64,000 bases of DNA. Source: Corallococcus caeni. GTDB taxonomy: Bacteria; Myxococcota; Myxococcia; Myxococcales; Myxococcaceae. How positions within the stretch are numbered: position 1 is the stretch's first letter; the number at the start of each line of letters is the position of its first letter. Where the stretch lies: assembly GCF_036245865.1 (NCBI RefSeq), contig NZ_BTTW01000008.1:96396-160395 (forward strand), written 5' to 3'. The notes under the pieces are model-generated. The model saw only the letters and a list, made by a program, of their open reading frames with translations, made no database searches and was not told where the DNA came from. A program made the translations under genes and the position numbers. Positions 19,313-35,856 of the stretch are shown here, one piece after another.

Positions 19313-19338
19313 AGCCCGGCGTGAAGTCCTGAAATGAA

Positions 19339-19380: not shown

Positions 19381-19388
19381 TTCCGCGC

Positions 19389-19844
19389 CTAGTTGCCTTC
19401 GCGCACGCCGATGGCGAGCTGCGCGAGGCCGGCCTTCTTCGCCAGCTCCATCACCTGCACCACGGTGCCGTGGGAGACGCCTTCGTCCGCCTGCACGATG
19501 ACCACGGTGTCGGGGTTCTGGTTCTTCGCGGTCTCGAAGGCCTGCTTCAATTCGGCCTCCGCGACGACGTTGCCCGCGAGCATGAAGCGGCCGTCCGCCA
19601 GCACCGCCACGGACAGGTCCGTGGTGCGCGCGGTGACGTCCGCGGCGCCGCCCTTGGGCAGGTTCACCTTGAGGCCCGCCTTGGCGCCGCCCCCCGGGCC
19701 CTGCTGGGTGATGACCGAGCTGGTCACCATGAAGATGATGAGCAGCACGAGCATCACGTCCGTCAGCGGCGTGATGTTGATCTCCGCGAAGCCCGCGCCC
19801 TCCAGCTCGTCGTCGCCCGAGCCGGGCGTCTTTCCCATGGCCAT
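19389..19844 (-). CDS. ExbD/TolR-family biopolymer transport protein
   Basis: Single N-terminal TM helix and a conserved ExbD periplasmic domain. Confidence 0.8.
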   Translation of the reverse strand: MAMGKTPGSGDDELEGAGFAEINITPLTDVMLVLLIIFMVTSSVITQQGPGGGAKAGLKVNLPKGGAADVTARTTDLSVAVLADGRFMLAGNVVAEAELKQAFETAKNQNPDTVVIVQADEGVSHGTVVQVMELAKKAGLAQLAIGVREGN

Positions 19845-19859
19845 GGTGGGCGTCTCTCC

Positions 19860-20588
19860 TTACGAGGCGGGCTGCGGATCCGGCCGCGGGGCCGGGGGCG
19901 TGGCGCTCTCGCGCGAGGGCGTGGCTTCCGGCAGGGGCCCGCCGGCGGCGCGCTCCTTGAGGGTCTCCACGAACTCGTCGCCCAGGAGGCGCAGCTCCAC
20001 CAGCACCCGGGACAGCCGGGCCTGGAAGTAGTTGTAGAAGACCATCGCCTGCACGGCGACGAGGATGCCCACGGCGGTGGCGACGAGCGCTTCCGAGATG
20101 CCCGTCATCACGGCCGCGGAGCCGCCGGTGCCGCCGGCCTCCACGTCCACGCCCAGGTCCTTGAACGAGCGCATGATGCCGGCCACGGTGCCGAAGAGGC
20201 CCACGAAGGGCGTCGTCGAACCGATGGTGGCGAGCAGCCACAGGTTGCGCCGCAGCTTCAAACCCACCTGGGCGCGCTCGCGCTCCACGGCGGACTCGAT
20301 GCCGTTGCCCCCGGTGGAGCGGGAGCGCTCCCAGCGGTCGAAGCCGGCGAGGAAGATGTCGGCCGCCACGGCGTCGGAGCGCTCGGCGGCGGTGCGGGCG
20401 GCGGCCACGTCCCCCCGGAGGAGGTGCTTCTGGACGATCTCCCCCAGGTTGCGGGAGCGCTCGCTCACGCCCCAGAGGGCGATGAGCCGCTCGATGGCCA
20501 CGCCCAGGGCCACCACGGAGGCGCCCAGGAGGAGGGCGAGGGTGACGCCGCCCAGGCGAAGGTAATGAAGTAGATCGTTCAGGCTCAT
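19860..20588 (-). CDS. MotA/TolQ/ExbB-family proton channel
   Basis: Three TM helices and the conserved TolQ C-terminal region (LATIGSTTPFVGLFGTVAGIM). Confidence 0.8.
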   Translation of the reverse strand: MSLNDLLHYLRLGGVTLALLLGASVVALGVAIERLIALWGVSERSRNLGEIVQKHLLRGDVAAARTAAERSDAVAADIFLAGFDRWERSRSTGGNGIESAVERERAQVGLKLRRNLWLLATIGSTTPFVGLFGTVAGIMRSFKDLGVDVEAGGTGGSAAVMTGISEALVATAVGILVAVQAMVFYNYFQARLSRVLVELRLLGDEFVETLKERAAGGPLPEATPSRESATPPAPRPDPQPAS

Positions 20589-20603
20589 GATGGATGACCG
20601 GGC

Positions 20604-21461
20604 ATGCGGCCCTGGCTCACACTAGGACATATGAACCGCGCAGCCGCCGCAATCTTCCTGGCCCTCCTCTGTTCGGCCTGCCCCAAACGCCTCGAGTTCG
20701 GTCCGGAAGGCCGCATCGAGGATGCCCAGACGCTCTACCAGCACGTGCGCGAGCGGCAGGCGCAGGTCGTGAACCTGGAGGGCGACGCCAAGCTGCACGT
20801 CGACTCGCCCCAGGGCAGCGGCACCCTCTCCACGTTCCTCTCCATCACCCGCCCGGGCTTCATCCACCTGGAGACGTACGACTTCTTCAACCGCCCGGTG
20901 GCCTCGCTCGTCTCCAACGGAGAGCGCTTCGGCGTCTACCAGGCGGGGGAGAACACGTACCTCCAGGGCCCGGCCAGCGCGGAGAACGTGTCCCGCTTCC
21001 TGCCTGTCGTCCTGCCGAGCGAGGAGCTGGTGGCGGTGATGCTGGGCCAGGTCCCCCTCCTGCCTCCGGAGTCCATGACCCTGGAGCTGGATGAGAAGGA
21101 GCGGGTGTACGTGCTGAAGCTCCAGCGGGGCCCCGCGACACAGACACTCCGCGTGGACCCGAAGCACCTGCGCGTGGTGAAGAGCGAGGTCCGGGGCGTG
21201 CCGGGCTATGACCTGGCGTTCGAGGACTTCGAGCAGCGCGGCGACCAGCTCTTCCCCGGCAAGGTGCACCTCATCGCCTCCACGGCGGACACGAAGCTGG
21301 ACCTGAAGTACACGGACATCCGCCTCAACGGCCGCCCGGACCTGACGCTCTATGAGCTGGTGGCGCCCGAGGGGGCCAGGGTGGTGGACGTCGACGCACG
21401 GGGCCAGGAAGTCCGCTCGGGGGGCACGGTGTCGCCCGCGCCCCCCGCGCCGGGTTCCTGA
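20604..21461 (+). CDS. Lipoprotein, DUF4292/LolB-like
   Basis: Lipobox LLCSAC and a LolA/LolB-like beta-fold profile. The first gene of the long co-directional block. Confidence 0.5.
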   Translation: MRPWLTLGHMNRAAAAIFLALLCSACPKRLEFGPEGRIEDAQTLYQHVRERQAQVVNLEGDAKLHVDSPQGSGTLSTFLSITRPGFIHLETYDFFNRPVASLVSNGERFGVYQAGENTYLQGPASAENVSRFLPVVLPSEELVAVMLGQVPLLPPESMTLELDEKERVYVLKLQRGPATQTLRVDPKHLRVVKSEVRGVPGYDLAFEDFEQRGDQLFPGKVHLIASTADTKLDLKYTDIRLNGRPDLTLYELVAPEGARVVDVDARGQEVRSGGTVSPAPPAPGS

Positions 21462-21520
21462 GCTTCCAGGCGTCGAAAGACAGCGCCCCGGCGCAAACCG
21501 GGTACTATGGCGCGCACGAC

Positions 21521-22273
21521 ATGGCACAGATCAAGCTCGGAGAACTGCTGATCAAGGCGAACGTCCTGCAGGAGAGCCAGCTCAAGGCGGCGCTCGCCGA
21601 GCAGGCCAAGTGGGGCGGGAAGCTGGGCGAGATCCTCGTCCGGATGAACCTCGTGTCCGAGGACATCCTCGTGCGCGCCCTGTCGAAGCAGCTCGGCATG
21701 CCGGCGGTGAACCTGGACGCCGTGCAGATGGTGCCGCCGCACGTGAAGTCCAAGATCCCGGCGCAGACCGCGCGCGACTTCTCCGTGGTGCCGCTGCAGC
21801 TGCGCGACGACGGCAAGACGCTCGTGGTCGCCATGTCGGACCCGCTCAACGTGCGGGTGCTGGACGAGCTGCGGGCCCTGTCCAAGTGCCGCATCGTGGC
21901 CAACGTGGCGGGGCGCACCTCCGTGGCGCGGGCGTTCGCGCGCCTCTACGAGGAGACGGCGGAGCTGGAGGACGCGGACACCAACTTCAAGGTGGTGGAC
22001 GCGCAGGGCCGCACCGTCGTGAAGAACCTGAAGGACCTGGACCCGGCCGCCGCCGTCGCCATGTCCCCCAAGCCCGCCGCCGCCGCTCCGCCCCGGCCAC
22101 CGCCCCCCGCGGAGGCCCCCCGTCAGGCCGCCTCCGGCAGCCCCGCGGAGCTGCTCAAGAGCGTGGAGGAGGTCCAGCGCAAGGAGGTCGCGGCGCTGAA
22201 GGCCATGGTGGAGCTGCTCATTGAGAAGGGTGTTTTCTCCCGCGAGGAATACCTCGCCAAGGTCAAGCGGTAG
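21521..22273 (+). CDS. Stand-alone MshEN / T2SS-E N-terminal (GSPII_E_N) domain protein
   Basis: Two tandem 24-residue MshEN-type motifs (KLGELLIKANVLQESQLKAALAEQ; KLGEILVRMNLVSEDILVRALSKQ). No ATPase domain. Confidence 0.7.
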   Translation: MAQIKLGELLIKANVLQESQLKAALAEQAKWGGKLGEILVRMNLVSEDILVRALSKQLGMPAVNLDAVQMVPPHVKSKIPAQTARDFSVVPLQLRDDGKTLVVAMSDPLNVRVLDELRALSKCRIVANVAGRTSVARAFARLYEETAELEDADTNFKVVDAQGRTVVKNLKDLDPAAAVAMSPKPAAAAPPRPPPPAEAPRQAASGSPAELLKSVEEVQRKEVAALKAMVELLIEKGVFSREEYLAKVKR

Positions 22274-22282
22274 CCCCCGGCC

Positions 22283-23271
22283 ATGCGCAAGAAGATTGGT
22301 GAACTCCTCGTCCAGGCCGGAGTGGTGACGGACGAGCAGGTGAAGCAGGCCCTTGCCTCCGGACGTCGCGGCCAGGGCCGCAAGCTGGGCGAGGTGCTGG
22401 TGTCCATGGGCCTGTGCACGGGCCGGGACATCGCGCGGGCGCTGGCGGCGCAGCACGAGCTGCCCTTCGTGGAGATCCCCGAGTACATCCCGCACGGGGT
22501 GTCCTCGCTGGTGTCCATGGACTTCCAGAGCGAGCACCGGGTGCTCCTCTTCGCTTCGGAGCAGGACGGCCGCAGCGAGAAGATCCACGTCGCGGTGGAG
22601 GACCCGGGCAACCTGATGCTGGTGGACGAGCTGCGCTTCCAGCTGCGCAAGCAGCTCAAGGTATTCGTCGCCGCGTCGGATGACATGGAGCAGGCGCTCG
22701 CGCGCGGCCGGGGCGAGCCCCTGGACATCGTGGAGGCTGAACCGATGGACATGGACGAGGACGATTCGCCGGACATCCTGCCGTCGCCGCCTTCCGCCTC
22801 CGCGCGGCCCCCGGCGCCGCCGCGCCCGCCCGCGCCGCCGGCGCTGGACTGGGACCTGCCTCCACCGCCGCCGCACGAGTCGGGCGTCGACGGCGCGGAG
22901 GTGCTGGAAGACATCCTGGGCTCCAAGCCCCGCCCCAAGGCCCCGCGTCCCCCGCCGCCGCCCGCCGCGGCCCGGCCGCCGCCCCCTCCGCCCTCCGAGC
23001 CCGAGGACCCGAGCAAGCCGCGCGTGCCGGTGGTGCTCTTCGGCGGCGCCGCGCAGGGCGCGAAGCCGTCCATGGCGCTCACGCCCACGCCGGACTTCTC
23101 CGAGGAGGACCTGGCGGTGCTGGACGACATCGACCGCATCTCGCGCGGCGAGGAGGCCAGCCTGGACACGGAGAAGGTGAAGCCCGCGCGCATGGTCGCG
23201 AGCCTCATCCGCCTGCTCATCCGCAAGGGGCTCATCCAGGAGGCGGAGTTCCTGGAGGAGCTGGCCCAGAA

Positions 23272-23275
<4 letters not shown>
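22283..23275 (+). CDS. Second stand-alone MshEN / T2SS-E N-terminal domain protein with a Pro-rich linker
   Basis: Motifs [24 protein letters not shown] and [24 protein letters not shown]. The C-terminal helix resembles that of the first MshEN gene. Confidence 0.7.
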
Positions 23276-24305
<1,030 letters not shown>

Positions 24306-24309
<4 letters not shown>

Positions 24310-25361
24310 GCGAACCCCTGGTCCAGGTGCGCGACCTGAAGGTGCACTTCCCGGTGAAGGGCGGCCTGCTGGGGCGCACGCGCGGCACGGTGCGCGCGGT
24401 GGACGGCGTGTCCTTCGACGTCGCCCGGGGCGAGACGCTGGGCCTGGTGGGGGAGAGCGGCTGCGGCAAGAGCACCCTGGGACGCGCGGTGCTGCGCCTC
24501 ATCGACCCGACCTCCGGCTCCATCCGCGTGGCCGGGCGCGAGCTGACCGGCCTGTCTCAGCGCGAGCTGCGGCCGCTGCGCCGGCAGATGCAGCTCGTCT
24601 TCCAGGACCCGTACGCGTCGCTCAACCCGCGCATGACGGTGGGGGACATCCTCGCGGAGCCCTTCGCCATCCATGGCCTCGCGAAGGGCAGGGCGCGCGA
24701 GGACGAGGTGCTGGCGCTGCTCGACGCCATGGGGCTGCCCCGCGAGGCGCGGCACCGCTACCCGCACGAGTTCTCCGGCGGCCAGCGTCAGCGCATCGGC
24801 ATTGCACGTGCCATCGCGTTGCGTCCGGACCTGGTGGTGGCGGACGAGCCCATCAGCGCGCTGGACGTCTCCATCCAGGCGCAGATCGTCAACCTGCTGG
24901 TGGACCTGCAGCGCGAGCGCAGGCTCACATACGTCTTCATCGCGCACGACCTCAAGATCGTGGAGTACGTGTCCTCGCGCGTGGCGGTGATGTACCTGGG
25001 CCGCATCGTGGAGGTCGCGCCGTCGCGGGCGCTGTACGCCGGGCCTCGCCACCCGTACACGCAGGCCCTGCTGTCCGCGGTGCCGGTGCCGGATCCGGAG
25101 CGTCCCCGCGCGCGACTGCTCCTGCCGGGAGAGCCGCCCTCGCCGCTGTCGCCGCCGACCGGCTGCGCGTTCCACCCGCGCTGCCCCCATGCGATGGAGC
25201 GCTGCCGGCGCGAGTCGCCGCCGCTGTATCCGCTGGGCGGAGGCCACGCCGCGGCGTGCTTCCTGGCGGAAGGGGACTCGCGGGAAGTGCAGGACGGGAC
25301 CGCTGTTTCCGCGTCCGGAGGAGGCGCCGGTGTTCTGGCTCAGCCATCATCACGCGGATGA
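24306..25361 (+). CDS. ABC transporter ATP-binding protein, OppF/DppF type
   Basis: Walker A GESGCGKS, signature FSGGQRQR, and a C-terminal Cys motif. ATGA overlap with the upstream gene. Confidence 0.85.
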
Positions 25362-25737
25362 GTACAACCGCACGTACGTGCTCGCGGGCGTGCGCGTGTG
25401 CGCGCGGTGCCTGGGGACGTACCCGGTGCTCGCCGCCGTGTTCCTGGGGTTGTTCGCGCTGAAGGCGCCGCTCCGGTGGGAGTGGGACGTGCCGGTGGTG
25501 CTGGCCCTCACGCTGCCCGCGCTGGTGGACTGGGCGGTGGGACGCTTCCGGCCCGCTTCCGGTTCCAACGCGCTGCGCACGCTGACGGGCGTCCTCCTGG
25601 GAGTGGGGCTTGGCCGCTCGCTGTACGTGCACGTGCAGCGCCCGCTGCCGGCGGTGCTGCTGGCGCAGGCACTTCTGGTGACAGGGGTGGCGGTCCCTGT
25701 CATTCTCGCCACTTACCGGCGGCCACGGCCGGAATAG
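25330..25737 (+). CDS. DUF2085 family small membrane protein
   Basis: Motif [10 protein letters not shown] and three or four TM helices. GTG preceded by GGAGGAGG. It overlaps the 3' end of the oppF-like gene by 32 nt. Confidence 0.55.
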
Positions 25738-25768: not shown

Positions 25769-26449
25769 GTGGGCGGTGAAGGGGATGGCACCCGTGGCTT
25801 CATGGGCACTGGGGGAAGTTTGGCACCCGAAACCTCAGACGAGCAGCTGATGCTCGCCTTCCAGGCGGGAGACGCGCGCGCGTTCGAAGCGTTGGTGCGC
25901 AAGCACCGCGCGCCGGTGTTCAACTTCATCCTGCGCTTCGTGGGGCAGCGGGCACGGGCGGAGGACGTGCTGCAGGAGACGTGGCTCAAGGTGGTCCGCA
26001 GCGCCCGGGAATACGAGCCCAAGGCCCGGTTCACGACCTGGCTGTACACCATCGCGAGGAACCTCTGCGTGGACAGCACGCGCAAAGAGAGCTACCGCCA
26101 GGCGACGTCCCTGGAAGCCCCCACGGCGGGTGCCGACGGGGACGAGGGACGTCCGCTGGGCGAGGGGCTGCCGGATGCCGGCGCCAGTCCGGAGCGCGGG
26201 GCGCACAACGCGCGCCTGCGGCCCCTGCTGGAGCGCGCCCTGTCGGGCCTGCCGGAGGAGCAGCGCGAGGTGTTCGTGCTGCGGGAGTACAGCGGCATCC
26301 CGTTCAAGGAGATCGCCGAGGTGACGGGCGTGTCCGAGAACACGGTGAAGAGCCGGATGCGCTACGCGCTGGAGGGCCTGCGCCGCCGCCTGGGAGAGCT
26401 GGGCGTGGATGGCGACCTGTCGGAGGATGGAAGGACGGTGGCGGGATGA
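25769..26449 (+). CDS. ECF (RpoE-like) sigma-70 family sigma factor
   Basis: Region 2 (AFEALVRKH...TWLYTIARN) and region 4 (REYSGIPFKEIAEVTGVSENTVKSR). The true start may be the internal Met at ~25802. Confidence 0.85.
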   Translation: MGGEGDGTRGFMGTGGSLAPETSDEQLMLAFQAGDARAFEALVRKHRAPVFNFILRFVGQRARAEDVLQETWLKVVRSAREYEPKARFTTWLYTIARNLCVDSTRKESYRQATSLEAPTAGADGDEGRPLGEGLPDAGASPERGAHNARLRPLLERALSGLPEEQREVFVLREYSGIPFKEIAEVTGVSENTVKSRMRYALEGLRRRLGELGVDGDLSEDGRTVAG

Positions 26450-27876
26450 GTGCCCAGAATGCCCACGCGCACGAGGACCGGCTCCTCGACTTCGCCTACG
26501 GCGAGCTGCCCGCGTCGGAGGCCCGGTCGCTGGAGCAGCACGTCCAGGGCTGCGCGCGCTGCACGAAGGCGCTGGCGGACATCCGCGGCGTGCGGACCAC
26601 CATGGCGCAGCTGTCGTCGGAGCCCGCGCCGGACGCGGGCCTGGAGTCGCTGCTCGCGTACGCGCAGCAGTCCGCGCGCCGCGCCGCCGCGGGGCCCGAG
26701 CCGAAGCCCTCGCGCTGGCGCCGCTGGCTCCTGCCCGCGGTGGGCCTGGCCACGGTGAGCACCTTCGGCCTCCTGACGCTGACGGTCAGCGAGAACCTCC
26801 ACCTGGAGCCGAACCTGACGCAGAAGGCCTCCAGCCCGACGATGGAGGCGGCGAAGCAGAAGGCGGAGTATCCCGCCTCGCGCGCCGCGATGCCCCCGCC
26901 CGCGCCTTCGAGCGCGCCCCTGGCGACGGCCGCGCCCGAGCCGATGGAGCAGCTCGCGGACCGGAAGCAGGGCGACGCGCAGGCAGAGCTCAAGGGCGCG
27001 GCCGGCGCCCGTCCGTCGGACTGGATGAACGCGGGCAGCGGTGGCGCGCTGCTGGAGCGGCGTCGCGCGGACGCCGACGCACCGAAGAAGAAGATGGCCA
27101 AGGCCGTCCGGGACGCGGACGAGTTCGCGGCGCTCGAGCCGGCCCCGGCCGCCGCGGTCGCGCAGGAGATGTCTCCGCCTCCGAAGGAAGAGGAGGCCGA
27201 CAGCGCCCTCGCCATGAAGGACGCCCCCGCGCCGCGGCGCGCACCCGGTGCAAGCAGCGACAAGGCGAAGGTCGCGAAGAACGACTCCCTGCGCCTGGGC
27301 GGTGCGTCTTATGGCCGTGGGCTCGCCCTGGACGATGAAGCCGAAGGCATGGCCGCGGGCGCGGCCCCGCCGCCTCCTCCCGTGGCCTCCGCGCCCATGG
27401 CCGAGGCCGTGGCTCCCGTCGCCACGGGCGCGCTGGGCCGCCAGCCCGCGCCCGCGAACACGACGCTCTCAGCCCCCGAACAGCGGAAGGAGTCCACCCG
27501 CGCGGAGGCCGCGAAGCCCAGGCCCGTGGAGAAGTCCGCCTCCTCCGAAGATGCGATGACGTCACGCGACCTGTCCGCCCAGGCCCAGGCCGCCGCGAGC
27601 CAGGGGGACCGCGCCCGGGAAGCACAGCTGCTGCGCGCCGCACTCGCCGCCGGAGCCACGGGCAGCGAGCGGTTGGGGCTGCTCTCACGGCTCTGCGAGT
27701 CGGAGTCCGTCCAGGGCCGGAGCCAGGAAGCCGCCACCGTCTGCGGGCAGATCATCACCGAGGCCCCCGGCTCCAGCGCGGCCCAGCTGGCCCAGCGCCG
27801 CCTGCGTCAGGCCTCGCCTCCCGCCGCCCCCGCGTCGGCTCCCGCCAAGGTCGCCCCCTCCACGCCCGCGCAGTAG
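26446..27876 (+). CDS. Anti-sigma factor (zf-HC2) with one TM helix and a long Ala/Pro-rich periplasmic region
   Basis: HxxxCxxC motif (HVQGCARC). ATGA overlap with the sigma gene. TM helix WLLPAVGLATVSTFGLLTL. Confidence 0.7.
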   Translation: MSAQNAHAHEDRLLDFAYGELPASEARSLEQHVQGCARCTKALADIRGVRTTMAQLSSEPAPDAGLESLLAYAQQSARRAAAGPEPKPSRWRRWLLPAVGLATVSTFGLLTLTVSENLHLEPNLTQKASSPTMEAAKQKAEYPASRAAMPPPAPSSAPLATAAPEPMEQLADRKQGDAQAELKGAAGARPSDWMNAGSGGALLERRRADADAPKKKMAKAVRDADEFAALEPAPAAAVAQEMSPPPKEEEADSALAMKDAPAPRRAPGASSDKAKVAKNDSLRLGGASYGRGLALDDEAEGMAAGAAPPPPPVASAPMAEAVAPVATGALGRQPAPANTTLSAPEQRKESTRAEAAKPRPVEKSASSEDAMTSRDLSAQAQAAASQGDRAREAQLLRAALAAGATGSERLGLLSRLCESESVQGRSQEAATVCGQIITEAPGSSAAQLAQRRLRQASPPAAPASAPAKVAPSTPAQ

Positions 27877-27894: not shown

Positions 27895-28188
27895 ATGACC
27901 GATGCGTGGAAGGCCCGGGTCCTGGATAATGGGGCCATGAGGTCGGACGTGCACGCTCCCCCCGTGAACAGCCCCCGGAAGTCTCCGCCCCGCCGGATCC
28001 GCCGTGGCCAGGCCATGGTGGAGTACTCGATGATCAACTGGGTGTTGATCGTCGGGCTCGTCGTCGGCGCCACGGTGAAGATCCGCTGGAACGAGGACAA
28101 GCAGACCAACGTCATCGACCTGTTCCTCGAGGCGTACCAGATTTATTACGACTCGTTCTACTTCGTGCTGAACCTGCCGTTCCCCTGA
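27895..28188 (+). CDS. Flp/Fap-family type IVb prepilin
   Basis: Class III signal-peptide motif G/QAMVEY followed by a hydrophobic helix (SMINWVLIVGLVVGATV). Strong Shine-Dalgarno-like sequence. The leader is unusually long; an internal start at ~27937 is possible. Confidence 0.65.
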   Translation: MTDAWKARVLDNGAMRSDVHAPPVNSPRKSPPRRIRRGQAMVEYSMINWVLIVGLVVGATVKIRWNEDKQTNVIDLFLEAYQIYYDSFYFVLNLPFP

Positions 28189-28288
28189 ACGGGACGGAGG
28201 AAGGCCGCGGATCAGGCCCGTGTGTCGCGCCGTCCTCCCCACCCGGCGGACAGGCGCCGCGAGCCCCGGGTGTCCCGGGATTCCGCTT

Positions 28289-28341
28289 TGTCACGAGAGG
28301 TGGTTTTGACACCTGCTCTGGGGCATGGCTAACATCTTGCC
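28289..28341 (+). promoter_or_regulatory. Candidate sigma54 (-24/-12) promoter TGGCTAACATCTTGC with an adjacent inverted repeat TGTCA-N13-TGACA, upstream of cpaB
   Basis: The GG and GC elements have the canonical 10-nt spacing (TGGC at 28326-28329, TTGC at 28337-28340). The inverted repeat spans 28289-28311. cpaB ATG is at 28426. Confidence 0.4.
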
Positions 28342-28425
28342 CCGTTCGCGCCCTGGCATCGCCCCCTCGTCCAAAGCTGTCCTGCCGCCACGACGGCGCC
28401 CCACCGTTCTGGAGGACCTAGAACC

Positions 28426-29244
28426 ATGTTGAAGGGTAAGACCCCGCTCGTCGTCGCACTGGTGCTCGGTTTGCTCGCCGGCATCGTGGCCTACTCGGCC
28501 ATCAAGAAGAAGGAATCGGATGTGCGCCGCGGGTGGAACCTGGTGCCCGTGGTGGTGGCGGGCCAGGACATGCCCGAGGGGTCGGTCATCACGTACGAGA
28601 TGATCTCCCAGCGCTCCGTGCCCGAGCAGTTCGTCACCTCGTCGGTGGTGAAGCCGGACTCCGCGAACTACATCGTGAACCAGAAGGTGCTGGTGGCGCT
28701 GCAGGCCGGCGACCCCATCCTCTGGAGCCAGTTCGAGACGACGAAGGCCGCCGAGCGCCTGTCCACGAAGGTGCAGAAGAAGGCGCGCGCCATCACCATC
28801 GAGGCGAAGCAGACCACGTCCGTGGGCGGGTGGATCCGCCCCAACGACCACGTGGACATCATCGGCACGTTCCGCGATCCGCAGACGGATGAGAGCGTCG
28901 CCGTGACGCTGCTGCAGAACATCATCGTGGTCGCGACGGGCAAGATCACCGGCACCACGAACATCAACCTCATCCCGGAGAACCAGCGCGAGTACAACAA
29001 CGTCTCGCTGATGGTGCTGCCGGAAGAGGCGGAGATCCTGGTGCTGGCGGCGGAGCTGGGGCAGCTGACGCTGTCGCTGCGCAACGAGGACGACGTGGAC
29101 CTCATCGAGGAGCGCGGCCGCGCCACCATCAGCACGCTGCTGTCCGGCGAGCGCACCCGCGTGCTGGAGCAGAAGCGCCGGGAGATCATCCAGATCATCA
29201 AGGGCAGTGGCAGCGGCGAGAAGGCCTCGGCCGGCTCCCCGTAG
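28426..29244 (+). CDS. CpaB/RcpC-family Flp pilus assembly protein
   Basis: N-terminal TM helix, SAF-like domain, and an RcpC C-terminal domain. GGAGGA Shine-Dalgarno-like sequence. Confidence 0.75.
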   Translation: MLKGKTPLVVALVLGLLAGIVAYSAIKKKESDVRRGWNLVPVVVAGQDMPEGSVITYEMISQRSVPEQFVTSSVVKPDSANYIVNQKVLVALQAGDPILWSQFETTKAAERLSTKVQKKARAITIEAKQTTSVGGWIRPNDHVDIIGTFRDPQTDESVAVTLLQNIIVVATGKITGTTNINLIPENQREYNNVSLMVLPEEAEILVLAAELGQLTLSLRNEDDVDLIEERGRATISTLLSGERTRVLEQKRREIIQIIKGSGSGEKASAGSP

Positions 29245-29320
29245 TCGTCGCGCGCGGGGCTGCTTCCCAAGCTGAAGCGGCCCTGCCGACCCCTCCCTCA
29301 TCCCCCGGGGATTCGCGCCC

Positions 29321-30166
29321 ATGCTCGCAGGTATCGTCCTCCTCCTCGTCACCGGCTCGGTGTTCTTCTTCAGCCTGGTGATCTTCAGCGTCCTGTCGAA
29401 GGCGTACGAGCAGTACCAGGAGCGGTACGTCGCCAAGTCGATGAACGACTTGAGCGACATGTTCCTCTTCATCGACGCGCGGCAGATGTTGATCCTCAAC
29501 ATCGCCTGCATGTGCCTCCTGGGCATCCTCAGCTACATCATCTTCAACCCCATCCTGGCGGTGCTGGCGACCATCTTCGGCTTCTTCCTGCCGATGCTGC
29601 TCGTGAAGCACTACCGCAAGCGCCGCATCAAGAAGTTCAACGTGCAGCTGGTGGACGCGCTGCAGGCCATGGCCAACGCGTTCAAGGCGGGCCTCACGTT
29701 CCCCCAGGCCATCGAGCACGTGGCGCGCGAGGCGATGCCGCCCCTGTCCCAGGAGTTCGGCCTCTTCGTGAAGGAAGTGAAGCTGGGCGTGCCCCTGGAA
29801 GAGGCGCTCGTCAACATGGGCAAGCGCGTGGGCAGCGACGACCTGGAGCTGGTGGTGGTGTCCACCAACATCGCGCGTCAGCTGGGCGGCAACATGGCGG
29901 AGATGTTCGAGACCATCTCCACGGTGATTCGCGAGCGCTTCCGTCTGGAAGGCAAGATCGACGCGTTGACCTCCCAGGGCAAGCTCCAGGGGTGGATCGT
30001 CGCGGCCATGCCGGCGGTGCTGGGCATGGTGCTCAACTACATGCGTCCGGACCTGATGGAGCCGATGATGAACCACATCTTCGGCTACATCCTGGTGACC
30101 CTGATCGCCATCATGGAGATCATGGGCATCCTCATCATCCGGCGCATCGTCAACATCGACATCTGA
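29321..30166 (+). CDS. TadB-like inner-membrane platform protein (T2SSF domain)
   Basis: T2SS F-type domain flanked by TM helices. Confidence 0.75.
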   Translation: MLAGIVLLLVTGSVFFFSLVIFSVLSKAYEQYQERYVAKSMNDLSDMFLFIDARQMLILNIACMCLLGILSYIIFNPILAVLATIFGFFLPMLLVKHYRKRRIKKFNVQLVDALQAMANAFKAGLTFPQAIEHVAREAMPPLSQEFGLFVKEVKLGVPLEEALVNMGKRVGSDDLELVVVSTNIARQLGGNMAEMFETISTVIRERFRLEGKIDALTSQGKLQGWIVAAMPAVLGMVLNYMRPDLMEPMMNHIFGYILVTLIAIMEIMGILIIRRIVNIDI

Positions 30167-30179
30167 AACGAGGCGCACC

Positions 30180-31070
30180 GTGCAGGAAGTCCTGACATTT
30201 CTGCTGATGGGCGGCTCGGCACTGCTGACCGCGGGCGCGGTGGCGTTCCTGGGCATCGGCCTGTACTCCAACGTCCTGGAGCGCTTCCTGTCGGAAGTCC
30301 GGGACGAGTCCGCGGGCGGCGTGAAGGGCGCGGGCTCCGTCGCCATCCGCAAGCTGGGCGCGATGAACCGGCGCTTCATGTGGCCGGGCTACGAGTCCAA
30401 GACGCGCCGCAAGCTCATCAAGGCGGGCGAGCCGTCGCAGTACAAGCCCGAGGACATCATGGCGCTGCAGGAGATCAGCGCCTTCTTCGCCCTGCTGGCC
30501 GGCCTGTTCGTCGTCAACGGCATCGGGATGAACCTGGCCTGGTCACTGCTGGTGATGCTGCTGGGCCTGTTCTATCCGCTCATCTGGTTGAACGATCAGG
30601 TGAAGCGCCGTCACCTGGCCATCAGCCGCGCGCTTCCGTACAACCTGGACCTGCTGACGCTGTCGGTGGAAGCGGGCATGGACTTCACGGGCGCGCTGGC
30701 GAAGGTGGTGGAGAAGGGCCGCCAGGGCCCGCTGCGCGAGGAGCTGCAGCTGGTGCTCAAGCAGCTCAAGATGGGCAAGACGCGTGAGGAGGGCCTCAAG
30801 AGCATGATCGTGCGCGTGGACCTGCCGTCCCTGACGACCTTCGTCACGGCGCTGATCCAGGCGGACAAGATGGGCACGAGCCTGGGCAAGGTGCTGCGCA
30901 TCCAGTCCACGCAGATGCGCATCGACCGCACGCAGCGCGCGGAGAAGCTGGCCGGCGAGGCCCCGGTGAAGATGCTGTTCCCGCTCATCGCCTGCATCTT
31001 CCCGACGGTGTTCATGGTGCTCTTCGGGCCCATCGTGTTCCAGTTCATGTTCGGCAACGTCGGGGGCTAG
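30180..31070 (+). CDS. TadC-like inner-membrane platform protein (T2SSF domain)
   Basis: T2SS F-type domain (LPYNLDLLTLSVEAGMDFTGAL) with N- and C-terminal TM helices. Confidence 0.75.
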   Translation: MQEVLTFLLMGGSALLTAGAVAFLGIGLYSNVLERFLSEVRDESAGGVKGAGSVAIRKLGAMNRRFMWPGYESKTRRKLIKAGEPSQYKPEDIMALQEISAFFALLAGLFVVNGIGMNLAWSLLVMLLGLFYPLIWLNDQVKRRHLAISRALPYNLDLLTLSVEAGMDFTGALAKVVEKGRQGPLREELQLVLKQLKMGKTREEGLKSMIVRVDLPSLTTFVTALIQADKMGTSLGKVLRIQSTQMRIDRTQRAEKLAGEAPVKMLFPLIACIFPTVFMVLFGPIVFQFMFGNVGG

Positions 31071-31143
31071 TCCTCTGCCCATCCTGCTCACCATCACCCA
31101 GGGGCTCCAGGTCGGACGGGAGCTCGCCTTCGAGCAGGCCGAG

Positions 31144-34080
31144 GTGAAGATCGGCCGGACCTCGGAGAACGACCTGGTGCTGCATGACCACGGTGTCTCC
31201 CGGCGTCATGCCCGCATCACGGCGAGGGATGGGCGCTACTTCGCCGAGGACGTCGGCAGCGCGAACGGCACGCAGCTGAACGGCCAGCCGCTGGGCGGCG
31301 AGAAGCAGCTGCGCGACGGCGACCGCATCACCGTCGGTCCGGTGGAGTTCACGTTCGTCTGGGTGGCGCCGGAGGATGACGACGACGTCACCCGGCCCAT
31401 CCGGCGCGCGCTCGCGCCGCCGCATGCGCGGGTGTCGCCGCAGGGCGTGGAGCAGGCTTCGCTCGCGGAGATCGAAGCGGCGCCCACGAGCTACCAGCAG
31501 TCGATGCCCGCGATGGCGCGGCCCGCGTCCCTGCCGCGCCCCGGGATGGCCGTGCCCGCCGCGAAGGGTGGGGCGGCTGTTCCCGCGATGCCGGTGATGC
31601 CGGTGATGCCGAGCGCTACGCCGAAGCGGCCCTCCGCGCCGGATCTGCCAGCGGTCGGTGCCGCTCCGGCCAGGACTCCCCCGGGGCCTCCCGTGTTGGG
31701 AGCTGCGGCATCGGGAGCGGCCGTTCCGAGCAGGGCTCCCGCTGGACCTCCCGTGCTGGGGGCTTCCGCGCCCGGAGGTCAGGTGGCCGGAGCTCCGGCC
31801 AAGGCTCCCGGGGCGAGCGCTTCCGCGTCGGGCAGATCCTCCGCGCCGGGCTTGCCCGCGGTGGGGGCGTCCCCGGCGAACAAGGCCGGCGCGACGCCTC
31901 CAGCCCCAGGGGCTTCCCCCTCGGGAAGAGCCTCGGCGCCGGGCTTGCCCGCCGTCGGTGCCTCGGGTTCAGGCCGGTCGTCCGTACCGGGCGCGACCTC
32001 CATGCCCGCGGGGGTTCCCGAGCCCGCGCACCCGACGGCGCGTGAGCTTCCCGTGGTGGGCGCCCCTGCCTCGGTGGAAGCTGCTCCAGCGCCTGAGAAG
32101 GCCGCGGCCCCAGGCCCCGGAGAGCCGGCCGCTTCCGCGAAGCGCAAGGCTGGCGCGAACCTCCCCGGTGTCGGCGCGCCCGCGCTGAACCGTCCCGAGC
32201 TGGGTCGTGGCGCGGCACGTGCGTCCGCGGCTCCCGCGTCCAGCCTGCCGTTGATGACGCCGCCGGGGTTCATGGCTCCGCCTCCGCCGGCACGGCCTCC
32301 TGTCGCCCCGCCTCCCGTGGACCTCGCTCCGGTGATGCCGGACGAACCCGAGGAGCGCACGCTGATGGCGATCTCCACCGTGGATTCGCCCGTGCCCACC
32401 TCCACGCTGGCCCCCGTGCTGCCCGTCCCGGACCTGGAGGAGCCCGAGGAGCGCACGCTGATGGCGATCTCCACCGTGGATTCGCCCGTGCCCGCCTCCA
32501 CGCTGGCCCCCGTGCTGCCCGTCCCGGACCTGGAGGAGCCCGAGGAGCACACGCTGATGGCGATTCCGGCGACCCCGGAAGCGCCGCCCCGGGTGGAAGA
32601 CGCGCCGCCGTTGGACGCTTCATCCGCGCTGCCCGTGCCGACGATGGAGGAGCCCGAGGAGCGGACCGTCCTCGACCTCCGGCCCATCACCCCGGTCAGC
32701 CCGCTGGTGGCCAGGCCGCTGCGCTTTGGCGTCGCGGTGGCGACTCCCCCCGCGCCGGGCGCCCCCGAACCGGCGACCTTCGTCGGCCAGGACGACGCCA
32801 TCCCCGCGGACGCTCCGGAGGAGACCCGGGCATCCCCCACCTTCGCGGGCCAGAACGCTCCCGCTGCTCCCGCTTTGGCGCCTCCGCCCGCCTGGAGTCC
32901 CCCCGTCCCGCCGCCTTCGCCGGAGCCGGAGCCGGTCACGCTCGTGGGCCGGAACCGGTCCGCGTCTCCGCCGAAGCTCGACGCCGGACCGATGCCCGGC
33001 GAGGCGCCGCTGCTGGCTCCCGCGCTCGTCCCGGAAGGGGAGGGCAACGCCACCCAGCCCCACCCTCCCGGACTGGAAGCCTCCGCGATCGAGCCCGGGC
33101 CCAAGGGGCCGGTGACGGTCGTCGCGAAGGTCGAACCGTCGTCCGCCGCCGACAAGGCGCGCAAGCGGCGTCAGCTGGGCAAGACGCTCAAGGGCCAGTT
33201 CCTCCTCTTCTGGCAGCGCCAGTCGTTGCCCCGGCGCATTGGCTTCGCGTCGCTGGCGGGGCTGGGCGCGCTGGCGCTGGTGACGCTGCTCGTGGCGCTC
33301 GTGGTGCCCTCGGCGATCCGGCTCCCCGGCCGCGAACCCTACAAGCTGGGCATGGATCCGGTGCCGGACTCCTTTGGCCTGGGCGAGGGCGTGCGGTGGG
33401 TGCACGCCGACGACAAGCTCTTCGACTTCCGCTTCGTGTCCCCCACGCGCGCGGTGGCCGTGCTGCACTACCAGGCCAGCAACATCGCCCGGGACGAGGT
33501 CAACCTGTCCCTCAACGGGGTGTCCCTGGGGTGGGTGCCCCCGGACACGGCGCAGACGGCCGAGCGCGAGCTGGAGCAGGTCCTGCCCCCCAGCCTCCTG
33601 CGCCGCAACGCCAACAACCAGCTGCTCTTCGACAACGCCCTCAACCCGCCCGGCCGCGACCCCTGGCGCATCTGGAACCTGCGCCTGGAAGTCATCCCGG
33701 TGCCCGAGCTGCCGCCGGATCAGCTGGTCGCTTCCGCCCGGGAGTCCGCCAAGACCGGGGCCCGCTTCTACGAGCTGAAGGACGTGGGCGCGGAGAACCT
33801 GTTCAAGGCGTGGCGGGAGTACCGCGCCGCGTGGATCACCCTGGAAGCGCTCGACGAAAAGCCGGAGCTGTACGACGACGTCCGGGAGCGGATCGCCCAG
33901 ATTTCAACGGAGCTGGACCACCGCTGCGGGCAGTTGATGATGCAATTCCAGCGGGCGGTTCAGTTCCGCAGCCGACGGGATGCGGTCGCGACCCTCGAAG
34001 ACGTGCGGAGACGCTTCCCTACCGCCGAGCATCGCTGCCACAATCTGGCGCTGGAAAAAGCCTATGAGCACGAGCTTTAG
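31144..34080 (+). CDS. FHA-domain protein with a Pro/Ala-rich repeat region, one TM helix and a periplasmic C-terminal domain; the true start is probably upstream (~31075)
   Basis: FHA core (IGRTSENDLVLHDHGVSRRHARI...GSANGTQLNG). Internal near-perfect 96-nt tandem repeats. TM helix FASLAGLGALALVTLLVALVV. Confidence 0.75.
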   Translation: MKIGRTSENDLVLHDHGVSRRHARITARDGRYFAEDVGSANGTQLNGQPLGGEKQLRDGDRITVGPVEFTFVWVAPEDDDDVTRPIRRALAPPHARVSPQGVEQASLAEIEAAPTSYQQSMPAMARPASLPRPGMAVPAAKGGAAVPAMPVMPVMPSATPKRPSAPDLPAVGAAPARTPPGPPVLGAAASGAAVPSRAPAGPPVLGASAPGGQVAGAPAKAPGASASASGRSSAPGLPAVGASPANKAGATPPAPGASPSGRASAPGLPAVGASGSGRSSVPGATSMPAGVPEPAHPTARELPVVGAPASVEAAPAPEKAAAPGPGEPAASAKRKAGANLPGVGAPALNRPELGRGAARASAAPASSLPLMTPPGFMAPPPPARPPVAPPPVDLAPVMPDEPEERTLMAISTVDSPVPTSTLAPVLPVPDLEEPEERTLMAISTVDSPVPASTLAPVLPVPDLEEPEEHTLMAIPATPEAPPRVEDAPPLDASSALPVPTMEEPEERTVLDLRPITPVSPLVARPLRFGVAVATPPAPGAPEPATFVGQDDAIPADAPEETRASPTFAGQNAPAAPALAPPPAWSPPVPPPSPEPEPVTLVGRNRSASPPKLDAGPMPGEAPLLAPALVPEGEGNATQPHPPGLEASAIEPGPKGPVTVVAKVEPSSAADKARKRRQLGKTLKGQFLLFWQRQSLPRRIGFASLAGLGALALVTLLVALVVPSAIRLPGREPYKLGMDPVPDSFGLGEGVRWVHADDKLFDFRFVSPTRAVAVLHYQASNIARDEVNLSLNGVSLGWVPPDTAQTAERELEQVLPPSLLRRNANNQLLFDNALNPPGRDPWRIWNLRLEVIPVPELPPDQLVASARESAKTGARFYELKDVGAENLFKAWREYRAAWITLEALDEKPELYDDVRERIAQISTELDHRCGQLMMQFQRAVQFRSRRDAVATLEDVRRRFPTAEHRCHNLALEKAYEHEL
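32351..32575 (+). repeat. Near-perfect 96-nt (32-aa) in-frame tandem repeat, ~2.3 copies, inside the FHA gene
   Basis: Unit 1 (32351-32446) and unit 2 (32447-32542) are each 96 nt. They differ at one nucleotide, plus a partial third copy. Encodes EERTLMAISTVDSPVP(T/A)STLAPVLPVPDLEEP. Confidence 0.8.
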
Positions 34081-34107
34081 GGCCCGTGCCCCCCTCAGCA
34101 GGACGCG

Positions 34108-35856
34108 GTGACCGCCATGTCGAACGCACCACCCCCCGCCCGCCGACGGCCTACATCCGGTACGCCCTCTTCCGGGACCGGACAGCGCGCGCCGGTCCGC
34201 CGGTCCACCGCCGGTGCCGCCGCGGCCCGCCCCGCGAAGCTCGTCGTCATCGCCGGTCCCATGGAGGGTGAGGAGTTCGCGCTCGCCGACCTCGAGTACA
34301 CGGTCGGCCGCGCCACGGACAACCCCATCTGCATCCAGGACACGTCGGTCTCCCGCAAGCACGTGACGCTGCGCAAGGAGTCCGCCGGCTGGATGGTCAG
34401 CGACATGGGCTCCGGCAACGGCACCATCGTCAACGGCGAGCCCATCACCGAGGAGACGCTCCTCGCCAACGGGGACGTCATCACGCTGGGCGACTCGGAG
34501 CTGCGTTACGAGGACACCGCCAACAGCACCGCCAAGGTGCAGGCCCCCTCCGGCTCCCGGCCCCGTCCGTCCACGGCGGCGGGGCGCGGTCCCACGGCCG
34601 TGCCCTCGCGTCCTTCCCGCGAGGGACGTGCGCGCCCGCAGACGGCGCGGGCCGCGGCCGCCGCGGAGCTCACGCCGGAGATGCAGCGCAAGCGCATGCG
34701 GATGAAGCTCGCGGGCGCCGCCGTGCTGGTGCTGCTCTTCGCGGGCCTGGGCGTCGCGCGCTCGCGCATGCGGCACCAGCAGGAGGAGCAGGGCCGCATC
34801 GAGGCGGAGCAGCGCCAGTACCGCGAGCAGCTGGGCGGCCTCTTCCAGGAGGCCAAGAACCTGGTGCGCGAGGGCCAGTGGCAGCAGGCCAAGGCGAAGC
34901 TGGAGGAGCTCCACGCGCAGGCGCCGGACTACCCCGGCGTGGAGGACTACCTCAAGGCCGCGGAGCGGGAGATCCCCAACCAGAACCACCTGAGCACGGC
35001 CCAGGCGGCGCTGGACAAGGGGGAGCTCGCCAGCGCGAAGGCGTCCATCGCGAAGGTGAGCGCCGACACGCAGCTCTACGAGCAGCTGAAGACGGCGCGC
35101 AAGAACCTGACGGACGCCGCCGACAAGCGCACGAAGGAAGCCAAGCAGCTGCTGGACACCCGCCAGCTGGAGAACGTGCAGAAGGCCAAGGCCATCACCG
35201 ACGACGTGCTCGCGACCTTCCCGGAGCACCGCGACGGCAAGCTCGTGAACGACGATGCCGTGCGCGTCATCGCGGACCTGACCCGTCCGGATCCGGTGCG
35301 CGTGGCCGCGGCGCCCAAGCCGTGGGAGCCCGCCGTGGACCGCTTCCGCGACGGTGACACGTCCGGCGCGGTGGCCATCCTCAACGCGTGCGCGGCCAAG
35401 ACGCCGCAGTGCAAGCAGCTGATGGGGCAGGTGACGGAGTTCGGCAACCTCTACAAGAAGCTGGAGGAGCTGGACGCCAAGGGCCTCACCCGGTTGCTCG
35501 CGCTGGACAAGGACATCACCGACGGGCGCGGCAGCAAGATGGGCCGCAACGCGGGCACCCGCGCGTCGACCATCTATTACAAGAGCGCCGCGGGCGCGAA
35601 GGCCGCCGGCCAGTGGTCGCGCGCCATGGAGTTCGCCCGCCGCGCGCTCCAGGCGGACCCCAACCACACGGGCGCCGCCAACATCGTCAACGACCTCAAG
35701 GGCAAGGCGAAGGACCTGTACATGCAGGCCTACTCCATCAAGGACTCCAGCCCGGAGGACGCGCTGCCCAAGTTCCGCGACGTCGTCACGATGACGCCGC
35801 CCGACGACGAGCTGCACGGCAAGGCCCAGGGCTGGGTCGAGAAGCTGTCGCGATGA
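34108..35856 (+). CDS. Second FHA-domain protein with a TM helix and TPR/coiled-coil-like periplasmic region
   Basis: FHA core (VGRATDNPICIQDTSVSRKHVTLRK...GSGNGTIVNG). TM helix LAGAAVLVLLFAGLGV. Its stop overlaps the xseA start (ATGA). Confidence 0.75.
   Translation: MTAMSNAPPPARRRPTSGTPSSGTGQRAPVRRSTAGAAAARPAKLVVIAGPMEGEEFALADLEYTVGRATDNPICIQDTSVSRKHVTLRKESAGWMVSDMGSGNGTIVNGEPITEETLLANGDVITLGDSELRYEDTANSTAKVQAPSGSRPRPSTAAGRGPTAVPSRPSREGRARPQTARAAAAAELTPEMQRKRMRMKLAGAAVLVLLFAGLGVARSRMRHQQEEQGRIEAEQRQYREQLGGLFQEAKNLVREGQWQQAKAKLEELHAQAPDYPGVEDYLKAAEREIPNQNHLSTAQAALDKGELASAKASIAKVSADTQLYEQLKTARKNLTDAADKRTKEAKQLLDTRQLENVQKAKAITDDVLATFPEHRDGKLVNDDAVRVIADLTRPDPVRVAAAPKPWEPAVDRFRDGDTSGAVAILNACAAKTPQCKQLMGQVTEFGNLYKKLEELDAKGLTRLLALDKDITDGRGSKMGRNAGTRASTIYYKSAAGAKAAGQWSRAMEFARRALQADPNHTGAANIVNDLKGKAKDLYMQAYSIKDSSPEDALPKFRDVVTMTPPDDELHGKAQGWVEKLSR

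Follow-up and report, generated by a model that had tools for sequence, protein, structure and literature searches.

Two adjacent open reading frames (ORFs) of Corallococcus caeni, designated A and B, encode proteins in which an MshEN domain is joined, through a proline-rich linker, to a C-terminal helical module and not to the T2SSE ATPase domain that follows MshEN in MshE, GspE and PilB. They are located in a 64-kb stretch of contig NZ_BTTW01000008.1 (hereafter the window; G+C content ~70%), to which all coordinates below refer, and are followed immediately by genes for two ATP-binding cassette (ABC) ATPases of the OppD and OppF type. In divergent relatives, A and B lie between the permease and the ATPase genes of an Opp-type importer. 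Both are predicted to bind cyclic di-GMP (c-di-GMP), A more confidently than B, and the reading that we favour, tentatively, is that they are c-di-GMP-sensing adaptors that would dock on OppD/OppF.

Tandem MshEN proteins without an ATPase domain

The two ORFs and their MshEN motifs are as follows.

21521..22273, + strand: ORF A, MshEN-only protein of 250 amino acids (aa), orthologue of MXAN_4667; MshEN_N at residues 5-57, MshEN_C/T2SSE_N1 at about 58-150, disordered Pro/Ala linker at about 170-206, C-terminal helical module at 207-250
22283..23275, + strand: ORF B, MshEN-only protein of 330 aa, orthologue of MXAN_4666; MshEN domain at residues 1-142, Pro-rich linker at about 143-272, C-terminal module at 272-330
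21533..21604, + strand: motif I of A, KLGELLIKANVLQESQLKAALAEQ, residues 5-28, read from the sequence and invariant in 120 orthologues
21620..21691, + strand: motif II of A, KLGEILVRMNLVSEDILVRALSKQ, residues 34-57, preceded by the 5-residue spacer AKWGG, which has the canonical length
22292..22363, + strand: motif I of B, residues 4-27, with Gly, not Gln, at position 24
22382..22453, + strand: motif II of B, residues 34-57, preceded by the 6-residue spacer RRGQGR and with Cys at position 12

The G+C contents at third codon positions, 0.96 for A and 0.94 for B, give a strong coding signal, as in genuine genes of the same genome. An earlier note on this DNA had described a pair of MshEN-domain ORFs, with coordinates identical to those given above, and had proposed a PF05157 profile search as a check. 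Both that profile and the NCBIfam model NF053729, 'cyclic di-GMP-binding domain, MshE-related', match A and B above their curated cut-offs. PF05157 (MshEN, Pfam; cut-off 23.1) recognizes residues 58-147 of A with 56.9 bits (E 2e-15) and residues 59-141 of B with 43.1 bits (E 4e-11), and NF053729 (cut-off 38) recognizes residues 4-57 with 64.8 bits in A and 56.2 bits in B. These matches are far above chance level. A T2SSE ATPase domain (PF00437) was not found in A or B with Pfam, NCBIfam or the structural models, nor in the window ORFs that were scanned with Pfam, which include all but a few of those predicted in the 64 kb. Since there is no PF00437 match and the chains end at 250 and 330 aa, after the linker and helical module, A and B are not members of the MshE/GspE/PilB ATPase family. 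They are tandem paralogues with ~31% identity, and the duplicated, stand-alone domain, the absence of an ATPase, the Pro-rich linkers and the shared C-terminal helix that the note had reported are all seen in the profiles, the predicted structures and the alignment of A with B.

MshEN_N is characterized by two 24-residue motifs, RLGxxLLxxGLLxxxxLxxxLxxQ, with a 5-residue spacer, and by a four-helix bundle. By profile score and the presence of four helices A and B both have an MshEN_N, and by PF05157 and fold both have an MshEN_C/T2SSE_N1 subdomain, with the motifs and spacer of B deviating from the pattern. Paired 24-residue motifs had been claimed for both proteins; this holds for A, in which both motifs and the 5-residue spacer are present, but B deviates at Gly24, at Cys12 and in its 6-residue spacer. 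The residue replaced by Gly at the end of motif I of B is the Gln that contacts ribose and phosphate. A departs from the strict consensus at position 1, where Lys replaces Arg, and at position 10, where both motifs have Asn instead of Gly, as is also the case in Geobacter PilB. The published relaxed regular expression for MshEN (Wang 2016) matches neither A nor B exactly, and profile models were therefore chosen as the criterion for membership.

Predicted structures and the C-terminal module

AlphaFold2 models of the single chains were built on a 70-sequence alignment. In the model of A, residues 1-150 form a four-helix bundle and an alpha/beta subdomain, with a predicted local distance difference test score (pLDDT) >90. 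Confidence is already low from about residue 151, falls to a pLDDT <50 in the linker (residues 172-206) and rises again to 80-92 in two C-terminal helices, residues 208-235 and 241-249. The model of B has a structured domain, residues 1-142, a linker, about 143-272, with block pLDDT values of about 50-73, and C-terminal helices at residues 274-287, 300-314 and 320-329. In a Foldseek search with the model of A, MshE with bound c-di-GMP (5HTL) was among the best matches by template modelling (TM) score (TM 0.84, root-mean-square deviation 2.3 A) and the GSPII-A domain of PilF (9G1W) had the lowest E-value. Other matches were to Thermus PilF GSPII domains, XpsE-N and the Xanthomonas PilB-N/PilZ complex, and 8PDK and 2D28 matched, beside 5HTL, the fold of the MshEN_C/T2SSE_N1 subdomain of A. 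By sequence, the solved proteins nearest to A are PilF and PilB, with E-values from 1e-37 to 1e-20.

The C-terminal modules are homologous to each other and are conserved not only between A and B but also across the orthologues of both.

22139..22270, + strand: C-terminal helical module of A, residues 207-250, helices in the model, family-private
23096..23272, + strand: C-terminal module of B, residues 272-330, homologous to that of A

Only 175 of 1.84 billion cluster representatives were retrieved with a profile of the module, which always matched at the extreme C-terminus of the protein. The full-length matches that were inspected begin with an MshEN-type N-terminus, except for two B-type proteins that lack MshEN_N and one outlier, a repeat protein (P0292). 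Because the search finds family members nearly alone, the module is private to this MshEN-only family, and the same numbers rule out a widespread interaction domain. A SHOCT-like identity of the C-terminal helix was rejected as a family assignment, as Pfam searches at E-values up to 10 were empty for both C-terminal peptides. Alignment of the module with MshEN_N motif I (LGELLVEAGxIxxxQLxxAL) by hhalign gave a weak match, with a probability of 59% and P 9.5e-5 over 21 columns in the predicted register, with P 0.13 for a reversed control. As a lead, the hairpin could represent a third, degenerate half-motif of MshEN_N without Gly3 and Gln24, the residues that contact the ligand. A lone helical hairpin of this kind could pair with another, for example A with B, or could dock on a partner. 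The Pro-rich linker of B-type proteins is very variable, with total lengths from 330 to 1883 aa and the C-terminal hairpin retained (loci L067, 10768-13332; L085, 10001-12427; L094, 9313-14964). The N-terminal domain is also kept across these variable-linker proteins, but not in the giant B of L094, which has no MshEN_N.

Conservation and predicted c-di-GMP binding

A is 98% identical to its counterparts in several Corallococcus species, 72-98% identical to those in most genomes labelled Myxococcaceae or Archangiaceae, and ~51% identical to those in the most divergent metagenome-assembled genomes. B evolves faster; it is 90-95% identical within Corallococcus, 57-60% to Myxococcus and ~43% to Archangium, as compared with 85% and 76% for A. 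Among 120 orthologues of A, residues 1-58 show almost no variation. All 17 divergent A-type representatives retain the 5-residue spacer and, in both motifs, L2, G3, L6, L17, L21 and Q24; only position 10 varies. The residues that contact the ligand in MshE (L2, G3, L17, L21 and Q24) are all present in A. Among B orthologues the spacer ranges from 5 to 8 residues, and some have lost MshEN_N entirely (P0263, P0272). c-di-GMP binding is a reasonable prediction for both proteins, and strongly so for A. Because the motifs and spacer of A are nearly invariant and those of B diverge fast and vary, A is a strong candidate c-di-GMP receptor and B a weaker one.

The orthologues of A and B in Myxococcus xanthus DK1622 are MXAN_4667 and MXAN_4666, respectively. 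Both are aligned, and listed as probable c-di-GMP-binding MshEN proteins, by Wang et al. 2016 (PMC5013675, Supplementary Table 3), who place them in one column with PilB and MshE and keep degenerate XpsE-like members such as FrgA apart. As the M. xanthus orthologues have been catalogued in this way, the bare observation that the pair are MshEN proteins is not new. M. xanthus has up to 22 MshEN genes (Wang 2016, PMC5013675) and, for the 17-22 MshEN proteins encoded, the literature search found no dedicated functional study other than of the pilus ATPase PilB. It also found no functional work on MXAN_4662-4668 or MXAN_6863, and MXAN_4666 and MXAN_4667 are not named in the main text of the M. xanthus c-di-GMP capture-compound paper.

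An Opp-type operon around A and B

The genes surrounding A and B in the window are as follows.

19389-19844, - strand: ExbD, divergent from DUF4292 and A
19860-20588, - strand: ExbB, divergent from DUF4292 and A
20604..21461, + strand: DUF4292 (LolB-like) lipoprotein, directly upstream of A, a position kept in nearly all loci including Anaeromyxobacter
21503..21508, + strand: -10-like hexamer TACTAT, 12 nt before the ATG of A
23272..24309, + strand: OppD-like ABC ATPase (Pfam ABC_tran and oligo_HPY), with Walker A, Walker B and signature motifs in the translation
24306..25361, + strand: OppF-like ABC ATPase, overlapping OppD by 4 nt
25330..25737, + strand: DUF2085 membrane protein, with a GTG at 25330, within the end of OppF, as its probable start, preceded by the Shine-Dalgarno sequence GGAGGAGG
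25769..26449, + strand: extracytoplasmic function (ECF) sigma factor, orthologue of MXAN_4662
26446..27876, + strand: zf-HC2 anti-sigma factor, orthologue of MXAN_4661, at the end of the predicted operon and also the outermost member of Kil cluster II as published

The gap between A and B is 9 nt, and the TGA stop codon of B overlaps the GTG start codon of the OppD-like gene (GTGA, 23272-23275), and OppD/OppF are translationally coupled to B. On the + strand, no terminator-like site was found from A to the anti-sigma gene. In M. xanthus, MXAN_4667 to MXAN_4661 constitute 'Operon 24', predicted from Cappable-seq and RNA-seq data (Kuzmich 2022, Table S2), in which MXAN_4667 is the first of seven genes, in the order A, B, OppD, OppF, DUF2085, ECF sigma factor and anti-sigma factor, and has a strong transcription start 5 nt upstream (Kuzmich 2022). 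The TACTAT hexamer fits this near-leaderless start, to which we infer that it is linked. A further, internal start located before the M. xanthus sigma gene is constitutive, and MXAN_4666 and MXAN_4667 are expressed vegetatively, with expression falling slightly during starvation-induced development (log2 fold change -0.4 to -0.8; Kuzmich 2022). The earlier note had stated that no catalytic partner is visible in cis. This is incorrect, since the overlaps couple two ABC ATPases to B, with DUF2085 following, again with an overlap, and since all of these genes are in Operon 24 in M. xanthus. Judged from their translations and Pfam matches, OppD and OppF appear catalytically intact. Both end in a four-cysteine cluster (GCAFRDRC...LC...AACH in OppD and GCAFHPRC...RC...AAC in OppF), as in Fe-S-binding Opp/Dpp ATPases.

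Gene order was compared in 80 species-representative loci, with identities of A from 98% down to 51%, and in additional metagenome contigs. A and B are adjacent in every locus with sufficient downstream DNA except one, L060, in which A directly precedes OppD, and OppD, OppF, DUF2085 and the sigma and anti-sigma genes are downstream of A-B in nearly all. In 18 GTDB loci, with A at <=70% identity, OppB and OppC are directly upstream of A, with OppA further upstream in 16 of these, and the same arrangement of OppB and OppC is present on three independent metagenome contigs (L084, L085, L092), raising the number with OppA to 18 of 21. Wherever downstream DNA is available in these 21 loci, B, OppD and OppF follow. 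In these divergent relatives A and B are therefore located between the permease and the ATPase genes of an Opp-type importer. In L067, L084, L085 and L092 the oppC-A, A-B and B-oppD junctions are short, ranging from a small overlap to a 49-nt gap; in L067, ~2.4 kb of unexplained sequence also separates oppD from oppF. Membership of an Opp operon, taken as co-transcription and a kept position among the transporter genes, is supported on both counts. In a more divergent lineage (L088/L089), in which A has 41% identity, the arrangement consists of A-OppD-OppF-DUF2085 alone; the genes beyond it are unrelated and lie on the opposite strand, and Kil genes are absent within 10 kb.

The Anaeromyxobacteraceae form one subgroup of the proteins retrieved with the module profile. 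Anaeromyxobacter dehalogenans 2CP-C has a single family member, of 478 aa with near-canonical motifs, motif II ending in Lys, and this gene ends a DUF4292-ExbB-ExbD-MshEN run in which all genes point the same way and are separated by 118, 3 and 80 nt, an arrangement also present on metagenome sequence. The run is preceded by genes for DAP dehydrogenase, MaoC and MaoC, exactly as in the window.

A possible role as adaptors for operon-encoded transport

That A and B are c-di-GMP-sensing adaptors, docking on the OppD/OppF ATPases encoded in their operon and also on DUF2085, is the likeliest of the roles considered, although we stop short of calling it probable. Docking on OppD/OppF is the mechanism best supported by the structure of the operon and by the position of A and B between oppC and oppD. 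The identity of the domain, its fold, the conservation of its motifs, the place of the genes in the operon and the gene orders compared were observed; that c-di-GMP is bound, which partner is involved and in which sense it is regulated are inferred, as follows. c-di-GMP would bind in the nucleotide pocket predicted within MshEN_N's bundle of four helices, and this would alter how A, and B, dock on the transport ATPases or on the membrane partner. Docking would occur through the T2SSE_N1-like subdomain, a known protein-docking fold, and/or the C-terminal hairpin, carried on the flexible Pro-rich tether, and transport activity would then follow the c-di-GMP level.

Several observations weigh against this interpretation. 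OppABC genes are absent at all crown-group loci (Myxococcus, Corallococcus, Pyxidicoccus, Hyalangium and Archangium), and no permease or binding-protein gene for OppD/OppF is present anywhere in the 64-kb window, so that OppD and OppF are here without a visible permease. Locus L094 has the order OppA-A-B-DUF2085-sigma, without OppB, OppC, OppD or OppF, and its B, of 1883 aa, lacks MshEN_N; in one lineage A is followed directly by xseA. In Anaeromyxobacter, the 10 kb on each side of the family member contain no Opp genes, second MshEN gene, ECF pair or Kil genes. Conservation of the neighbourhood is itself weak evidence, because unrelated metabolic genes (DAP dehydrogenase, MaoC) are syntenic over an equal depth. 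For B, Gln24 of motif I is absent in both Corallococcus and Myxococcus, and loss of MshEN_N has occurred in some orthologues. The text search of the literature revealed no precedent for an MshEN protein regulating an ABC transporter, nor binding or interaction data for A, B or any orthologue.

The neighbouring Kil cluster II

Downstream of the anti-sigma gene, the window contains orthologues of cluster II of the Kil system of M. xanthus (Seef 2021; Nat Commun 2025). This is genomic context, not shown to be part of the A/B unit.

27895..35856, + strand: core of Kil cluster II
27895-28188, + strand: Flp-like pilin ORF, 97 aa, G/QAMVEY motif
28426-29244, + strand: CpaB/KilB
29321-30166, + strand: TadB/KilG, T2SSF
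30180-31070, + strand: TadC/KilH, T2SSF
31144-34080, + strand: FHA protein
34108-35856, + strand: FHA-TPR protein

Kil is a contact-dependent prey-killing machine encoded, in M. xanthus, by cluster II (MXAN_4648-4661) and cluster I (MXAN_3102-3108), with the secretin and the ATPase KilF (MXAN_3107) in cluster I, and starvation is reported to induce the kil genes (Seef 2021). A and B had been placed, in the earlier note, just upstream of a Tad-like system that lacks its own ATPase. Cluster II is indeed downstream, but five genes intervene and KilF is encoded at the second M. xanthus locus; the lack of an ATPase gene is the known two-locus split and no surrogate is needed. MXAN_4667 and MXAN_4666 are outside the published kil clusters, five genes beyond MXAN_4661. 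A and B adjoin cluster II in most Myxococcaceae loci, and family members also occur with no Kil genes within 10 kb.

The 97-aa ORF has no Pfam match but contains RRGQAMVEYSMINWVLIVGLVVG, a Flp-type prepilin motif (G/XXXXEY, then a hydrophobic helix), and is probably the counterpart of KilK (MXAN_4655), with a later true start. The Tip4 minor pilin genes kilM4, kilN4 and kilL4 (MXAN_4660-4658) are absent from cluster II in the window and in other Corallococcus loci, in which the remaining small genes located in M. xanthus between the anti-sigma gene and kilB (MXAN_4653-4657) were not specifically searched for. From the anti-sigma gene to CpaB/KilB, the window has ~550 bp (27876-28426) with the one Flp-like ORF, as compared with 16421-20718 in M. 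xanthus (L001). This short form is also found in loci L003, L006, L008, L009, L038, L054, L063-L066, L070, L072, L073 and L075, and in L061 CpaB is at the short-form distance before the contig ends. Myxococcus, Pyxidicoccus and Hyalangium have the long form.

Alternative roles

Because the single family member of Anaeromyxobacter follows them and has no Opp or Kil genes within 10 kb, DUF4292 and ExbBD are, as judged from gene order, the oldest neighbours of the MshEN-only family. A and B might control the proton-channel motor ExbB-ExbD, the pathway of the LolB-like lipoprotein DUF4292, or both, as an ancestral c-di-GMP input to a TolQR/ExbBD-type energiser to which Opp and Kil were added later. 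The run that ends in the sole family member, in A. dehalogenans and on related metagenome contigs, argues for such a role, as do the ExbB, ExbD and DUF4292 genes that flank A in nearly every Myxococcaceae locus and the listing by Wang et al. of MXAN_6863 as an MshEN protein, which by locus-tag numbering only adjoins aglRQS (MXAN_6862-6860), encoding a TolQR-like gliding motor. However, in the window, as in every Myxococcaceae locus, ExbBD and A are divergently transcribed, in many relatives opp genes spanning 4-6 kb come between them, and L085, in which A, B, OppD and OppF are present, lacks both ExbBD and DUF4292 in the upstream 10 kb. Unrelated flanking genes are, moreover, equally syntenic between Anaeromyxobacter and Corallococcus. 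On balance, we consider this role fairly unlikely. That one or both proteins, mainly B, is a ligand-independent scaffold or tether that functions through the N1 subdomain and C-terminal hairpin is less likely still, and improbable for A in particular, in which the motifs are nearly invariant and all of the MshE ligand-contacting residues are present. B, without Gln24 in motif I, with a 6-residue spacer, at 57% identity to Myxococcus where A has 85%, and with orthologues (P0263, P0272) that have lost MshEN_N, fits a scaffold better. The failure of both proteins to match the relaxed motif exactly is also consistent with this, and single substitutions such as G40E can abolish c-di-GMP binding (Wang 2016, PMC5013675). 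Conversely, both proteins score above the cut-off of the NCBIfam motif model, and changes of charged residues in MshE, including Gln32, seemingly altered affinity no more than fivefold.

A relay of c-di-GMP in trans to the Kil machine, in line with the suggestion in the earlier note of input to a secretion or pilus ATPase, with A and B standing in for the N-terminal MshEN domain of a PilB-type ATPase and acting on KilF, the KilG/KilH platform or the FHA proteins, is unlikely. Cluster II borders the A-B operon not only in the window and in M. xanthus but at most Myxococcaceae loci, the divergent L085 and L092 among them, and MshEN with the N1 subdomain constitutes the docking module of type IV filament ATPases, with PilB-PilZ and GspE-GspL among the fold matches. 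We know of no Tad-type ATPase of the CpaF class that has an MshEN domain, which would also favour a relay. The predicted operon, moreover, ends in an anti-sigma gene that Seef et al. count in cluster II. On the other side are the five genes between B and the first pilus gene, the position of the orthologues outside the published kil clusters, the occurrence of family members with no Kil genes within 10 kb (L088/L089, Anaeromyxobacter) and the opposite expression trends, as starvation is reported to induce the kil genes and MXAN_4666 and MXAN_4667 decrease slightly. Neither c-di-GMP nor the A and B genes are mentioned in the Kil literature searched. Alternatively, A and B could act on the co-transcribed ECF sigma and zf-HC2 anti-sigma factors and so make their regulon, perhaps the kil genes, responsive to c-di-GMP. 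In Streptomyces, c-di-GMP controls the RsiG/sigma-WhiG pair, and A and B share their predicted operon with the sigma and anti-sigma genes, which lie downstream of them in nearly all Myxococcaceae loci, even in L094, which has no OppBCDF. The sigma gene, however, has its own constitutive transcription start, no such pair is beside the family member in L088/L089 or Anaeromyxobacter, and no sequence feature ties MshEN to sigma factors, making this very unlikely. Equally doubtful is the broadest proposal, of a 'kill-and-feed' supra-operon that would be confined to predatory Myxococcaceae and would combine the Opp importer/ATPases with the Kil pilus, with A and B as its c-di-GMP switch. The adaptors would then be free MshEN proteins tethered by the private hairpin, with the third half-motif perhaps pairing A with B, and Kil would be reached through the co-transcribed ECF sigma/anti-sigma pair or by direct docking.

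Relation to known MshEN systems

Vibrio cholerae MshE (5HTL), Thermus PilF, Geobacter and Myxococcus PilB, and GspE have, like A and B, an MshEN_N with two 24-residue motifs and a T2SSE_N1 subdomain. In MshE, PilB and GspE the T2SSE ATPase follows, whereas A and B have instead a disordered tether and the private hairpin and are not in a pil, gsp or msh operon. As a portable sensor outside secretion ATPases, the domain has been documented in Escherichia coli NfrB (glycosyltransferase-MshEN), EpsG (MshEN_N-AAA_31), Pseudomonas aeruginosa PA3740 and Cyanothece cce_1044 (Wang 2016). The characterized proteins of this type have the sensor fused to an output, as in NfrB, or have MshEN_N only; A and B are separate proteins with a full MshEN domain, tether and hairpin, duplicated and in an ABC operon. 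In the Xanthomonas PilZ-FimX-PilB system (7LKO), a separate c-di-GMP-binding protein signals to a motor ATPase through its MshEN-fold N-domain, which resembles the concept of the earlier note. There, however, the MshEN-fold domain is inside the ATPase and the sensor is an EAL protein, whereas in A and B the MshEN domain is itself the free protein. The published kil genes include those of cluster II but neither A nor B, which have no known requirement in killing; no mutant data for their orthologues in prey killing were found in the searchable literature. MXAN_6863-aglRQS, adjacent by numbering only, and the Anaeromyxobacter ExbB-ExbD-MshEN run hint at a recurrent link between MshEN proteins and TolQR/ExbBD-type motors.

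The position between the permease and ATPase genes of an Opp-type operon with the translational coupling to OppD/OppF, the family-private C-terminal module, and the ancestral ExbBD-linked single-gene form in Anaeromyxobacter are new. The locus joins three envelope systems, an ExbBD energiser, an Opp-type ABC transporter and the Kil killing pilus, and the A/B pair is very strongly conserved and vegetatively expressed from its own strong promoter. If, as we tentatively favour, A binds c-di-GMP and docks on OppD/OppF, MshEN signalling would extend to ABC transporters. Docking on Kil components would provide the first regulatory input to contact-dependent predation, and a kill-and-feed switch would make this the first ABC transporter under MshEN control and give Kil its first second-messenger input. 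Any of these would be relevant to the action of c-di-GMP in Myxococcus beyond exopolysaccharide production, pili and development.

Other features of the window

The acyl-CoA dehydrogenase gene and exbD are convergent, and between them is a strong 16-bp stem-loop flanked by U/A tracts (19338-19373), probably a bidirectional terminator that bounds the ExbBD unit upstream. Two other genes have domains related to c-di-GMP turnover. A response regulator with an HD_5/HD (HD-GYP-type) domain is encoded ~7 kb upstream of A (13741-14862, - strand), a position kept in M. xanthus (L001, 2275-3390). As a candidate c-di-GMP phosphodiesterase, it might provide local control of c-di-GMP for A and B. The hybrid histidine kinase encoded at 43788-46301 (+ strand) has GAF, HisKA, HATPase and REC domains and, at its C-terminus, a short and weak GGDEF match (residues 707-743, E 1.6e-4) that may be the remnant of a diguanylate cyclase domain.

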